The position numbers and the translations under genes are program-made. The notes under the pieces were generated by a model. That model had not been told where the DNA came from. It saw only the letters and a list, made by a program, of their open reading frames with translations, and did not search any database. A DNA stretch of 31,500 nt. It comes from Zestosphaera tikiterensis (GTDB lineage: Archaea > Thermoproteota > Thermoprotei_A > Sulfolobales > NBVN01). Location: assembly GCA_003056265.1 (NCBI GenBank), contig NBVN01000008.1, positions 1-31,500 of the forward strand. The letters run 5' to 3'. This document shows positions 3,722-21,680 of this stretch, one piece after another (position 1 is the first letter of the stretch; each line of letters begins with the position of its first letter).

Positions 3722-4858
3722 ATGCGCATAGCCATAGCCTGCACGTACTACCCATTTCCACCATCAATAGGTGGTGTCGAGGCAATCGCTAGAAACGTTG
3801 CTAGGGAATTGGCTAAGAGAGGTCACGAGGTCCACATAGTGACGTCTAACCTAGACGTAACGACGCAGAGGCCTGTAACCGATCTGGGAATTGAGGAGAG
3901 GGAGGGTGTTATAGTTCACAAGCTCAAGCCCAGCAACTTCAGAGTTGGCTACGCACGCACCTTGGAGGGGTTGAAGGAGACCATAGCCAAGATAAAGCCG
4001 GATATAGTGCATGCACATAACCTCCATCCACACCTCTTTCAGCTAACCAGATGGAAGAAGGATATTGGTTACAGATTAATGGCGGAGCTACACTATCCCG
4101 AGGTGAATCTCGATTTCGTTATACAAAAACTCTTAATGAAGCCTGCCATGTACTTGCTGAAGAAGGTCTCTAACCAGATGGATCTGTTCATAGTGCATAC
4201 TAAACTGGAAAGGTCGTGGCTCGAAAAGTGTGGTGTAGAAGGCAGCAGGATTAGAGTAGTGTTTACGCCGCACATATCCGACGAGTTGCTAAAATATATT
4301 TCAAGGAGTAGAAGCGGCAATGAAGTTCTTTTCGTCGGTAGGCTTGTCTTCAAAAAGGGAGTTCACATACTTATAAAAGCCTTTCATAAGGTATTAAACA
4401 AGATCCCCAACGCGAAACTCTTGATTATAGGGCCCGAAGATTCTAGGTATGGAAGATATCTGCGTGAGCTTGTAAGAAGCCTTGATCTTGAAAAGGCTGC
4501 GAGTTTCCTAGGATCCGTAGACGAGACTAAGAAGATAGAATTGATGGCTTCAGCAGCTGTATTTAGTTTGCCGACGTTGGCCGACTACCATCCAATTGCG
4601 CTCCTCGAGGCACAGGCTCTGGGAACACCTGTAGTTTCAACAAGAGTCGGAGCCATACCAGAAATAGTCATAGACGGTGAGACTGGACTGCTTGTGGAAC
4701 CAGGCAGCATCGACCAACTTGCAGAAGCGATCGAAATGTTATTAACGGACGAAAGACTCCGCAGGAAGATGTCGCAGAAAGCTAGGGAGTGGTCCAAGAA
4801 CTTCACGCTAGATAAAGCGGTCAGCAGGTTGGAGGGGATATACAAATTACTATTGTGA
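3722..4858 (+). CDS. family 4 (GT-B) glycosyltransferase
   Basis: The N-terminus reads MRIAIACTYYPFPPSIGGVEAIARNVARELAKRGHEVHIVT. The C-terminal part reads FVGRLVFKKG ... LLEAQALGTPVVSTRVGAIPEIVIDGETGLLVEPG. The gap to the upstream gene is 12 nt. Confidence 0.9.
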   Translation: MRIAIACTYYPFPPSIGGVEAIARNVARELAKRGHEVHIVTSNLDVTTQRPVTDLGIEEREGVIVHKLKPSNFRVGYARTLEGLKETIAKIKPDIVHAHNLHPHLFQLTRWKKDIGYRLMAELHYPEVNLDFVIQKLLMKPAMYLLKKVSNQMDLFIVHTKLERSWLEKCGVEGSRIRVVFTPHISDELLKYISRSRSGNEVLFVGRLVFKKGVHILIKAFHKVLNKIPNAKLLIIGPEDSRYGRYLRELVRSLDLEKAASFLGSVDETKKIELMASAAVFSLPTLADYHPIALLEAQALGTPVVSTRVGAIPEIVIDGETGLLVEPGSIDQLAEAIEMLLTDERLRRKMSQKAREWSKNFTLDKAVSRLEGIYKLLL

Positions 4859-13204: not shown

Positions 13205-13945
13205 GTGGTGGAAGTGTACATACATAGGGATAAGATTAAGTGTGCTATTGACCTACTGGAGAAGGGTGCTTCACAGAGGGAGATCGCTAAGGCTTGCGGC
13301 TTAAGCATGTCCCAGGTCTCAGCTATAGGTAGGGAATATGGGTACTATGTTGATGTTAAAGAGCATTTCGAGAAGCTTAAGGAGGAGAAGAAGAGGGAGT
13401 ATGAGGCTTTTAGGAATTCTATCCTCGAAGAAAAGAAGAAGCTTGAAACGGAGCTTAGAGACCTAAGTGAGAGGCTTGAGGCACTTAAAGATGAGGAGAA
13501 AGCGCTGCGGAAGAGTGTGGAGGACCTCAGGCACGTTGAGGAGTCCTTGAAGCAGGAGATCGGAACATTAGTGAATGCTTTAAAGATTGTGTGTTTTCAT
13601 TATCAGGCGTATCGTGCTGAAGCTGAGAAGCATATGGAGTCTTTAGAGAAAGCTATTGGTAGTGAGGTGTGGAAATTCCTCGAAGAGATCGAAGCCCTCA
13701 TGAGCCCTGAACTCCTCAAAGATCTTGAGGAGTTTGGGAATTCTCTCGACCGTATCGCAGTAACTAAAGAGTATAGAGAATATTTGAAAAGCAGGTTTGA
13801 GAGAGTGGCGAGTGCTTTAAGAAGTTTATTTGTTTTGCTGAATAAGGGAGGGTACTTCGTAAACTTAATGGTTTTAGCGCAACTTAGGGATCTGTGTAGC
13901 ATAGTTGATGTGCTGGAGCGTGTAAGCAAGAAAGAGACTAGGTAA
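13205..13945 (+). CDS. HTH DNA-binding protein with a long coiled-coil region; family not recognised
   Basis: GGAGG at 13189-13193 precedes GTG-13205. The N-terminus has a helix-turn-helix (GASQREIAKACGLSMSQVSAIGREYG). Heptad-like Glu/Lys/Leu-rich sequence follows (EKLKEEKKREYEAF...LETELRDLSERLEALKDEEKALRKSVEDLRHVEESLKQEI). Confidence 0.6.
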   Translation: MVEVYIHRDKIKCAIDLLEKGASQREIAKACGLSMSQVSAIGREYGYYVDVKEHFEKLKEEKKREYEAFRNSILEEKKKLETELRDLSERLEALKDEEKALRKSVEDLRHVEESLKQEIGTLVNALKIVCFHYQAYRAEAEKHMESLEKAIGSEVWKFLEEIEALMSPELLKDLEEFGNSLDRIAVTKEYREYLKSRFERVASALRSLFVLLNKGGYFVNLMVLAQLRDLCSIVDVLERVSKKETR

Positions 13946-13951
13946 GTTAGT

Positions 13952-14045
13952 GCTACATATAGATACGTCTTGCTACATCTACGCTACATCTGGATACACA
14001 GACTACATCAAAATACACCTGATACATGCTACGACAACCTTACAA
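13952..14045 (+). repeat. degenerate tandem array of about 10-nt units with core TACA(T/C), ten copies
   Basis: TAC(A/G) starts at 13954, 13964, 13974, 13985, 13995, 14004, 14014, 14023, 14030 and 14041. The spacings are 10, 10, 11, 10, 9, 10, 9, 7 and 11 nt. Six copies read TACAT and several read (G)CTACATC. Confidence 0.85.
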
Positions 14046-19881: not shown

Positions 19882-20373
19882 TTATTTCAGTGATTTTGAA
19901 AGGAACTCTATAAATCTTTCAAGAGCCCTTCTGTATTTATGGTAGGTGGATTCACTTATGCTGTGTTCTTTCAAGTAATCTTCTAGGAATTCCTTTATGG
20001 TTTCATCTTTTAATTCTAAGGGGTTTATATGCTTGTCTTTAATCCATGAGGCAAACCTTCTAATAATGAATGTCCCTTTCTTAACTTTTTCTTCATTGAT
20101 GTATTTCCTCACAAGCTCTTCTACGTTGCCGATTTCAACAACTCCTGTGGGTTCTCCACTTATAGCAACTCCTAAAGATGAGGTTTCCCGACCTTTTTCA
20201 AAACCTCTTTTATATGCTTCATAATAATATGTTAGGATATTAGCCATAAGCTGGCTTGGTTCCATAGCGATTTCCTTTGAAAATTCCTCAAGCCATTCTA
20301 CTAGATGTTTCGGCAACTTAATTTCTATGGTTTTAAAGTTATGTAAGTCCTTCAAAGTTCTCAACCCTCTCAA
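19882..20373 (-). CDS. ParA partner: N-terminal ribbon-helix-helix domain fused to an integrase-type SAM-like (core-binding) domain
   Basis: It overlaps the 3' end of parA (TTG-20373 or TTG-20364). The RHH pattern is TIEIKLPKHLVEWLEEFSKEIAMEPSQLMANILTYYYEAY. The C-terminus (LKDETIKEFLEDYLKEHSISESTYHKYRRALERFIEFL) resembles the phage-integrase N-terminal SAM-like domain. There is no catalytic domain. Confidence 0.55.
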   Translation of the reverse strand: MRGLRTLKDLHNFKTIEIKLPKHLVEWLEEFSKEIAMEPSQLMANILTYYYEAYKRGFEKGRETSSLGVAISGEPTGVVEIGNVEELVRKYINEEKVKKGTFIIRRFASWIKDKHINPLELKDETIKEFLEDYLKEHSISESTYHKYRRALERFIEFLSKSLK

Positions 20374-21199
20374 GAACTTCTCTTGCTAAAGTATCTATAT
20401 TCTGCCTTAACTCGTTATTTCTCTCCATAACCCTATTTAACGGTAACTCCCACCTCCTAGGCCTATACATCAAGTCTTTAAGCTCTTCATACCTATATAT
20501 GATTGTGTTGAAGAAAGGCTTCTTATAGAAGCGCTCACGTACGGTAGGCGGTAGTTGATGGAGGAACTTCGTGAACGCGTGATCAACGCTGTTGAGGGTG
20601 TTACCACTTACTTTTCTGGTAACGTTAATCACTATAATACCTAATATCTTTAATTCCTTCTTACTCTTCATTATAACGTCCGGAAGTATATCCTTCACTA
20701 GAAGCTTAACTCCAGCAAGCGAAAGTTCCTCTAAATTCGACGGAACTAACACATAGTCTGCAGCGTATAAACCCCATATAGTCGGTGGGAAGAGCTCTGG
20801 AGGGGTATCGCATAATATGAAGTTATAGTCTCTATTTATAGCAGGCTCCATTTGAATCCTAGAGTTAATAGCGTAGGGATCCCACGACGGAATCATACCT
20901 CTATACGTATTCACTATATAGTTAAGGCCTGACGGTATGATACCCATCCTACCCCTAGTGCTGGTATCTACCTTACGTATCACGAACTTCACGCCTTGCG
21001 CCATCTCTATTATGCCATCCCTCACATTCTCAAGATCAGTTATCTTCAAAAAGAACGATGATAAATGCGACTGAGGATCTAAATCCATCAGTAGAACATT
21101 ATACCCCCGAGCAACTAAAGCATGACCGAGTAACGCGGTAAGAGTTGTTTTACCAGTGCCGCCTTTCTGGTTTGTAATAGTCAACACTTTAGGCGGCAT
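20339..21199 (-). CDS. parA: ParA/MinD-family partition ATPase
   Basis: The deviant Walker A is ITNQKGGTGKTTLTALL. Other motifs are LLMDLDPQ and ILCDTPP (Walker B region). It is 286 aa with a C-terminal extension. Confidence 0.9.
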   Translation of the reverse strand: MPPKVLTITNQKGGTGKTTLTALLGHALVARGYNVLLMDLDPQSHLSSFFLKITDLENVRDGIIEMAQGVKFVIRKVDTSTRGRMGIIPSGLNYIVNTYRGMIPSWDPYAINSRIQMEPAINRDYNFILCDTPPELFPPTIWGLYAADYVLVPSNLEELSLAGVKLLVKDILPDVIMKSKKELKILGIIVINVTRKVSGNTLNSVDHAFTKFLHQLPPTVRERFYKKPFFNTIIYRYEELKDLMYRPRRWELPLNRVMERNNELRQNIDTLAREVLERVENFEGLT

Positions 21200-21236
21200 T
21201 AACTCCCTTCCTCACATTCTTAATAACGTTATGAAA

Positions 21237-21244
21237 AATATAAA
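21237..21244 (-). promoter_or_regulatory. TATA-box-like element for the parA operon
   Basis: The minus strand reads TTTATATT about 40 nt upstream of ATG-21199. The 10-nt palindrome ATAACGTTAT (21223-21232) lies between it and the start codon. Confidence 0.3.
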
Positions 21245-21332
21245 TCCCTTATTTTAGAGGCACCTAAACAACTCTGGAAATCGCCTAAGGAGTTTAACCA
21301 AGGATATTAGTTCACCTGAAGAGCTTGTTAAC

Positions 21333-21680
21333 GTGACTTTTAACTATAGGTGTAAAGACCCCATAGCAAGTACTATACTTAATCGTGACGTTTACATCAC
21401 TATAAGACTTACACAGATCTATGAAGAGATGCTTGAATTAGCGAAGCTCATCGCTGAACTTAAGCCTAAAGCCGTTCTTGAAATCGGTACTGCTGGCGGC
21501 GGTACTCTCTTCCTATGGTGTAGACTAGCATCAGATGATGCTAGGATCATAAGCGTAGACCTTCCAGGAGGTCCTTTCGGAGGTGGTTACCCTATCTGGA
21601 GGGGGATTCTCTATAAGTACTTCAAGAAGCCTAAGCAAGAACTTCACCCTGATCCTAGCTCTAGACACTCTAGGTCGTGA
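21333..21680 (+). pseudogene. truncated class I SAM-dependent methyltransferase (Methyltransf_24/CmcI-like N-terminal half)
   Basis: It contains KPKAVLEIGTAGGGTLFLW (motif I), IISVDLPGGPFGGGYP and KQELH. The expected continuation (LI.GDSH... and about 100 more residues) is missing, and the ORF ends 40 nt before the next TA cassette. Confidence 0.55.

Follow-up and report, generated by a model that had tools for sequence, protein, structure and literature searches.

The 31.5-kb contig NBVN01000008.1 of the archaeon Zestosphaera tikiterensis (C17 of a 1.8-Mb assembly in 19 contigs that is 93% complete) was analysed over its entire length, and is called the window below. On its minus strand it carries a pair of overlapping genes, the first encoding a ParA-type ATPase and the second a small protein, hereafter the partner, in which a ribbon-helix-helix (RHH) domain is predicted to be joined to the core-binding domain of tyrosine recombinases. 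The parts of the pair are as follows (aa, amino acids; nt, nucleotides; ORF, open reading frame; pLDDT, predicted local distance difference test).

20339-21199, minus strand: parA, a 286-aa ParA/Soj-type deviant Walker A ATPase (ORF, profile and PDB matches, orthologue alignment)
19882-20355, minus strand: partner gene, 157 aa, a predicted centromere- or operator-binding adaptor (start set by homologue alignment)
20176-20334, minus strand: RHH domain of the partner, residues ~8-60, with the strand TIEIKLP (model pLDDT 94-98, Foldseek, VIA-align)
20131-20175, minus strand: variable linker, residues ~61-75, of low confidence (pLDDT 52-70, gappy alignment columns)
19888-20130, minus strand: tyrosine-recombinase core-binding (SAM-like) four-helix domain, residues ~76-156, called the arm below (PF02899, VIA-align)

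The ATPase and its two-domain partner

Judged by its sequence, the product of parA is a bona fide partition-type ATPase. It matched the Pfam families AAA_31 (PF13614, E 8e-27, 94.7 bits against a cut-off of 27) and CbiA (PF01656, 4e-18, 66.2 bits against 25.4), the phage family phrog_164 ('ParA-like partition protein') over residues 2-284 at 1e-40 and, among PDB sequences, Soj, ParA and pNOB8 ParA; it is also the top AAA_31 match of the whole genome. The deviant Walker A motif with its signature lysine, KGGTGKTT (residues 12-19), is invariant in all orthologues with a readable N-terminus, and an alignment of 12 orthologues (55-66% identity) shows the same for DLDPQ and CDTPPELFPPT, so the Walker A' and Walker B aspartates (in DLDPQ and CDTPP) are present. 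The preliminary description of this DNA had called the protein a 286-aa ParA/MinD ATPase with KGGTGKTT and a C-terminal extension, on which the ORF, Pfam, phrog_164 and PDB matches agree. The extension is specific to the family, spans ~70 residues (window 20339-20560) and carries a nearly invariant YRPRRWE(L)PL and a terminal NF-x-G; the YRPRRWE(L)PL extension could be matched to no described ParA feature, and it may be an element that contacts the partner or DNA. In two of the related loci, cited here by L numbers, the ParA gene is damaged: the frame is apparently broken inside the Walker A region at L006:2368-2440, and the gene is split into two ORFs at L021:4987-5858.

The longest ORF of the partner runs from 20373 to 19882 on the minus strand and would encode 163 aa. 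Since its homologues, including the closest one, and the database gene call all begin with M-K-(D/G)-L, the start is probably the TTG at 20355, which gives 157 aa and an overlap with the end of parA of 17 nt, compared with 35 nt from the ORF start at 20373. The overlapping 163-aa ORF of the preliminary description therefore exists and does overlap parA, whereas its length is better taken as 157 aa.

Sequence and model together predict that the partner is an N-terminal RHH domain, a disordered linker and a complete four-helix core-binding domain. An AlphaFold2 model of the monomer, built from a 37-sequence family alignment (mean pLDDT 89), comprises an extended segment, helices at residues 16-28 and 33-64, a low-confidence linker whose length differs across the 37 family members, and four helices over residues 77-156. 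For residues 5-61, Foldseek returned the RHH proteins StnY, CopG, CopA(SO) and PutA at probabilities of 0.96-0.99 and a root-mean-square deviation (rmsd) of 1.0-1.6 Å. VIA-align, which was run against 48,161 PDB representatives, aligned the same residues with RHH antitoxins and PutA at Z 6.2-7.2, the antitoxins TacA, MazE, ParD and KacA being among the best structural neighbours. Sequence profiles respond far less to this domain: an RHH Pfam model was matched by a single family member of the 37 (RHH_5, E 0.002), and the window partner has one weak NCBIfam match, to a LexA-regulated protein family (E 0.007). Leu14 and Pro15 of the domain are nearly invariant across the family.

The C-terminal domain is recognized by profile as well as by fold. 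PF02899 (Phage_int_SAM_1) matched the window partner with 25.5 bits (cut-off 22.3), as did, more weakly, three sister SAM-like families and archaeal XerA; among the 37 full-length members PF02899 was found in 25 (best E 1.5e-9) and PF13495 in 22 (best E 4.7e-14). In VIA-align, residues 72-157 were placed closest to 3nrw (Z 9.5, rmsd 2.8 Å over 84 residues), XerD (8.6), XerH (7.9) and XerA (7.7), with 70-85 residues aligned for the top recombinase core-binding matches, and the next places were taken by lambda Int, IntI and several structural-genomics 'integrase SAM-like' domains; Z values of this size fall in a range that the program warns may be generic for helical domains, and the core-binding assignment is made because the fold matches agree with the Pfam matches and the top matches are uniform. 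The hydrophobic core of the arm is conserved (Phe101 and Trp104, both nearly invariant, Phe123, Tyr127, Tyr141, Leu145 and Phe148). Basic residues are also kept at positions 99, 131, 142 and 146, a pattern compatible with retained DNA binding by the arm. Both domain calls of the preliminary description have thus held up when examined by model, structure search and profile: the RHH N-terminus is borne out by fold (Foldseek and VIA-align on the AlphaFold2 model), and the integrase-type SAM-like C-terminus by profile (PF02899, PF13495) and fold (3nrw, XerD).

What follows the core-binding domain in recombinases is missing here. No recombinase catalytic domain (PF00589, R-K-H-R-H/W-Y) is found in the partner or elsewhere on its contig, as the preliminary description had noted for the window, and the partner is therefore not a recombinase. 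The sole PF00589 match of the genome is a 316-aa Xer-like ORF on another contig (C14:407929-408879), whose arm has only marginal similarity to the partner (E 0.001, 30% over 46 residues). Nor is the partner a decayed or split integrase gene, since all 37 full-length members end directly past the four-helix domain, no catalytic remnant is found, and the gene after the partner is a convergent glycosyltransferase. A possible second copy of the partner or of an integrase relative, indicated by a weak match at C14:113694, was discarded as a chance similarity, the 331-aa ORF there having no integrase-like features.

Distribution and candidate DNA sites

When 1.84 billion cluster representatives were searched exhaustively with HMMER (E <= 0.001), 72 relatives of the partner were retrieved, ~40 of them with the full architecture at 140-180 aa. 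Other forms (P0031-P0034, P0042 and P0045) consist of the RHH domain alone (58-96 aa) or of the arm alone (77-98 aa), and one protein of 260 aa, P0054, has one RHH domain followed by two core-binding arms in tandem. The members come from Thermoprotei or Thermoproteota, including Desulfurococcus, and from one Archaeoglobaceae genome, so the module crosses phyla. It is nevertheless scarce: of 401 genomes sampled throughout the phylum, 4 have the partner, and among 61 close relatives ParA and partner both occurred in the same two genomes. The combination of an RHH and a core-binding domain is thus a real but rare family of thermophilic archaea, patchy in its distribution.

The coupling of the two genes is tight. 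Sixteen distinct loci with an intact partner were collected from genomes and metagenomes, and in 14 of these parA lies immediately upstream, abutting or overlapping the partner gene; two further loci, L024 and L025, hold frameshifted remnants of the partner. The preliminary description had asked after the conservation of the pair and its co-occurrence elsewhere, and on both counts, joint presence in the same two relatives and adjacency in 14 of 16 loci, the genes are found together. Identity across the loci is 55-66% for ParA and 34-47% for the partner; it is usual for the motor to be conserved while the adaptor evolves faster.

Several of the related loci have long ORF-free stretches beside the pair, three of which are dense arrays of yTAGy words and, by their sequence, candidate centromeres. 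The longest, at L015:7650-9300, holds 84 TTAGC/GCTAA words in 1.65 kb, or 14-19 per 300 nt against a background of ~1; within it (L015:7737-9157) lie 27 TTAGC-N6-GCTAA palindromes with at most one mismatch, where 1.04 are expected from shuffles. A smaller array of the same words (L015:3800-4450) occupies the opposite flank of the cassette, which reads HTH_23 gene, parA, partner, orf247. In L019 the array (960-1900) has ~50 CTAG in 941 nt, in words of the form (A/G)CTAG(C/T), and ends just before parA, while the AACTAG/TTAGTT array of L024 (970-1660) begins directly after the frameshifted partner gene. Three arrays among ~16 loci are unlikely to be a coincidence, because such density is rare: in the 1.8-Mb home genome, 13-20 copies per 400 nt is what the highest-ranking 5-mer clusters attain. 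Two of the home-genome clusters, C4:650 and C1:12140, were rejected as centromere-like arrays, being long in-frame ACT/ACA repeats of Thr codons in coding-looking sequence. A known RNA was likewise dismissed as the source of the yTAGy arrays, which have no Rfam match at gathering thresholds.

A further gene may belong to the system in some genomes. Directly upstream of parA in L021 (4408-4965) lies a 185-aa gene with an HTH_23 domain and a coiled coil, and a truncated orthologue, 61% identical, occupies the same position in L015 (4453-4713). The window has an HTH_23/coiled-coil gene of its own (13205-13945), followed by a G(C/A)TACA(T/C) array (13205-14040 overall); its product is a distant relative of the L021 protein (E ~1e-4). 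Since this gene was found in none of 60 relatives, and the ParA/partner pair is also rare, two very rare genes lie on one contig. The HTH_23 coiled-coil protein may be a third component resembling KfrA. A tie between the TACAT array, 6 kb away, and the ParA/partner system was speculative in the preliminary description and is still so, although it gains some indirect support because a distant relative of the array-adjacent gene stands directly upstream of ParA in two related loci.

The region upstream of parA in the window offers several short motifs.

21200-21334, minus strand: promoter and candidate operator region (sequence motifs, weak)
21237-21244, minus strand: TATA-like box within this region
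21223-21232: ATAACGTTAT palindrome, between the TATA-like box and the ParA ATG
21219-21229 and 21324-21334: ACGTTAWYAAG, two same-strand copies 105 nt apart
21253-21268: TTTAG-N6-CTAAA palindrome, one copy

A protein on the ATAACGTTAT palindrome, just downstream of the TATA-like box, would block initiation. The palindrome is indeed in the promoter, as described before, and as an operator or centromere it is at most a weak candidate. The ACGTTAWYAAG pattern, for which 18 copies were counted in the genome on both strands, was derived from the same two promoter copies. An apparent enrichment of yTAG words at this promoter (four in 90 nt) was set aside as not significant, since 3-6% of sequence windows match that density. 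An alignment of genome G184 with the Desulfurococcus locus L008 contains no conserved upstream block. In L007 (4880-5060) and L022 (1060-1300) the ~250 nt upstream of parA share 75% mean column identity with long identical runs and no ORF; such conservation may mark a regulatory region, or simply a close kinship of the two sources.

Proposed function and alternatives

We propose that the pair is a two-gene, type Ib-like ParA partition module with a centromere-binding adaptor of undescribed architecture, and we put the probability of this reading at roughly 0.6. The outline is type Ib-like in that a small RHH gene comes after a ParA gene and repeat arrays accompany them in some loci. With the function we also infer DNA binding by either domain, ParA stimulation, the reader of the arrays and the nature of the cargo. 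In the proposed mechanism, the RHH domain would dimerize the partner and its beta-ribbon would read short repeated DNA words, while the two tethered core-binding domains, with their conserved surface Lys/Arg, would grip neighbouring or distant DNA. Such gripping could build a large partition complex on the repeat array and repress the operon's own promoter; nucleoid-bound ATP-ParA would then engage the complex, and move or space the DNA on which it sits. Alternatively, the arm could serve for contact with a protein and not as a second grip on DNA; its conserved basic residues and the existence of the tandem-arm variant speak weakly for DNA binding.

ParA together with a small RHH protein is an established partition design, ParG, omega, SegB and HpaB being known. 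The type Ib systems ParF-ParG of TP228 and delta-omega of pSM19035 share with the window a small deviant Walker A ParA gene followed by a small RHH gene, and their RHH protein reads short-repeat arrays that serve as both centromere and operator. However, ParG and omega have the RHH as their single domain and activate the ATPase by a flexible tail at the N-terminus, whereas the window partner has its RHH domain at the extreme N-terminus and an arm appended to it; the window ParA, at 286 aa and with its conserved C-terminal extension, is also longer than the type Ib ParAs.

Among archaea, SegA-SegB of Saccharolobus solfataricus likewise combines a chromosomal ParA with a site-specific RHH partner that forms higher-order DNA complexes (PMC8682754). 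In SegB, disordered residues 1-33, which are required for ATPase stimulation, precede the RHH domain, and there is no core-binding domain (PMC8682754). The PDB search gave no SegB sequence match for the partner, and SegA (220 aa) is a weak match to the window ParA (7dut, E 7e-7). HpaA-HpaB of the Haloferax volcanii plasmid pHV3 is a two-gene archaeal ParA operon with an RHH centromere-binding partner of ~150 aa; in HpaB, the RHH domain, which touches DNA through residues 70 and 74, belongs to the C-terminal half, HpaA is contacted by an N-terminal helix, and a recombinase-type domain is not reported (PMC13722703). The AspA-ParB-ParA system of the Sulfolobus plasmid pNOB8 has an archaeal ParA of like size, which matches the window ParA at E ~1e-12 (5k5z, 5u1j), but the system has three components, its sites being read by a winged-helix protein (AspA) and its adaptor being ParB-like, and an RHH and a core-binding domain are both absent from it.

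The tyrosine-recombinase fold is reused without catalysis in Ndc10 (3sqi), a centromere-binding protein of the yeast kinetochore, and in MrpR (8a0a) and SroF (9rd5). MrpR and SroF are prophage repressors. All three appear among the fold matches of the partner arm in VIA-align (MrpR Z 7.0, SroF 6.5, Ndc10 5.7), a likeness of fold that carries no evidence of common descent, and they keep most of the recombinase body, whereas the partner keeps the four-helix arm alone, fused to an RHH domain. The link between Ndc10 and tyrosine recombinases was drawn by Perriches and Singleton 2012, as cited in PMC6077249. Catalytically dead recombinase folds are thus already known as DNA binders; what is new is an isolated arm fused to an RHH domain as the partner of a ParA. 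A full-text literature search found no paper describing a ParA partner of this architecture, and SegB and HpaB are built otherwise, in keeping with the preliminary description, to which such a fusion was unfamiliar as a centromere-binding protein.

Several observations weigh against the partition module. In two loci, L020 and L032 (the latter from genome G039), the partner occurs without ParA. Only 2-10 poorly conserved residues precede the RHH strand in the 37 members, so that there is no N-terminal tail, long and flexible, to activate the ATPase as in ParG, SegB and HpaB; the partner must touch ParA at another point, for which its basic C-terminal end, linker and arm are candidates. No array of the L015, L019 or L024 type is found in the window or its assembled genome, where no cluster of 5-N(4-8)-5 palindromes occurs either, and most of the related loci also have no obvious array. 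The promoter motifs of the window are weak operator candidates, to be taken as leads, because the 11-mer was defined from its own two copies and the yTAG density is ordinary. The arrays could also belong to another protein, such as the HTH_23 protein beside ParA in L015 and L021; the 7-kb contig of L019, on which array, ParA and partner occur in the absence of an HTH gene, speaks mildly for the RHH protein as array reader. Finally, no family member was found in PLSDB plasmids, INPHARED phages or IMG/VR contigs, collections that hold few archaeal thermophile elements. In the genome of the window the module may act on a site in the unassembled part, or it may survive from a lost or integrated element.

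The last of these possibilities, taken by itself, is the foremost alternative. The pair would then be the leftover stabilization cassette of an integrated or lost plasmid-like element, with no centromere or present segregation role here, and perhaps only an autoregulated operon. The pair lies in an accessory patch beside a truncated methyltransferase gene and several toxin-antitoxin pairs, the assembled genome has no array, the pair is rare and patchy, and it decays elsewhere (ParA split in L021 and apparently frameshifted in L006, the partner frameshifted in L024 and L025). Yet the window copies are intact, with all ATPase motifs and all conserved partner residues, and an assembly in 19 contigs at 93% completeness leaves room for a site elsewhere; moreover, the argument bears on the state of one copy and not on the function of the family. 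We regard a relic of this kind as unlikely overall, and as a live alternative for the window's genome, the remaining alternatives below being little supported.

The cargo need not be DNA. ParA/MinD ATPases can position protein cargo, and the partner might chiefly be a transcription factor or an adaptor through which ParA positions, for example, an envelope or glycan-assembly complex, as do BcsQ and McdA. This would suit the glycosyltransferase genes that surround the pair in the window and in the Desulfurococcus locus L008, as well as the absence of an obvious centromere array in most loci. It is hard to reconcile with two domains in the partner that both have DNA-binding folds, with a ParA that matches partition ParAs over its full length, and with neighbours that vary, glycan genes being present at only two of ~16 loci, and we consider it quite improbable.

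Slightly less probable still is a role as an accessory to recombination, in which the partner would bind att or dif-like core sites, either as a factor of directionality or in competition with an integrase, with ParA as a helper. Its C-terminal domain corresponds to the part with which Xer enzymes and integrases clamp the core site, there is a resolvase fragment near L022, and the Archaeoglobaceae locus L009 adjoins a tRNA-His gene, a typical integration site. However, none of the loci examined has an integrase gene beside the pair, a search of the available sequence near the L009 tRNA-His gene gave no att-like direct repeat, the similarity to the arm of the host XerA is marginal, and it is ParA and not a recombinase to which the partner is strictly coupled. 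It is very improbable that the pair acts in defence or in the manner of a toxin-antitoxin system, with the RHH protein as an 'antitoxin' that controls an ATPase effector: many antitoxins are among the best RHH structural neighbours and the pair usually sits in islands rich in toxin-antitoxin and restriction genes, but in PADLOC ParA has a marginal P-loop match and the partner none, ParA is a standard partition ParA without a toxin domain, and the order of ATPase before DNA-binding partner is that of par operons.

The partition module can be extended to a bolder proposal, which we hold only tentatively. The partner family would be a new class of archaeal adaptor acting on kb-scale arrays of dozens of yTAGy words, and such arrays would be prokaryotic centromeres of a new type; sites would be recognized by the RHH domain, and the domesticated arm would add a second grip that bridges or compacts the array for a dedicated ParA subfamily, in parallel to Ndc10. 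If true, this would be the second, independent case after yeast Ndc10 in which parts of a tyrosine recombinase have been reused for centromere recognition. How ParA is coupled to DNA in most archaea is a standing question, and to our knowledge few archaeal DNA-segregation systems have been described, namely SegAB, AspA-ParB-ParA of pNOB8 and HpaAB. To these the partner family would add a fourth adaptor design, in which an RHH reader is combined with the DNA-clamping arm of a recombinase, separated from the catalytic domain. The proteins are small, come from thermophiles and have high-confidence models, and with the L015 array as a substrate, binding, bridging and ATPase-stimulation assays are feasible.

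Neighbouring genes

The genes around the pair differ between loci. They are often of an accessory kind, including restriction-modification, HEPN/MNT, AbiEi and VapBC genes, a resolvase fragment and a tRNA-His gene, and in some loci they are housekeeping or glycan genes. The suggestion in the preliminary description that the pair sits in an accessory patch or mobile-element remnant fits the restriction-modification, toxin-antitoxin, AbiEi, resolvase and tRNA neighbours of the other loci. In the window, the 115-aa ORF at 21333-21680 matches only positions 8-67 of the 206 of a CmcI/rhamnosyl O-methyltransferase profile, and by this partial match appears to be a truncated gene on the margin of the accessory patch.

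In L009 the tRNA-His gene (4759-4831) lies 290 nt upstream of parA, and 900 nt after the partner are free of ORFs. Convergent to the pair in L007 (6705-8624, the same place as L002:2-1213) is a gene for a 639-aa family B DNA polymerase, which in L007 reads VDSVFV at the expected place of the usual polymerase aspartate motif.

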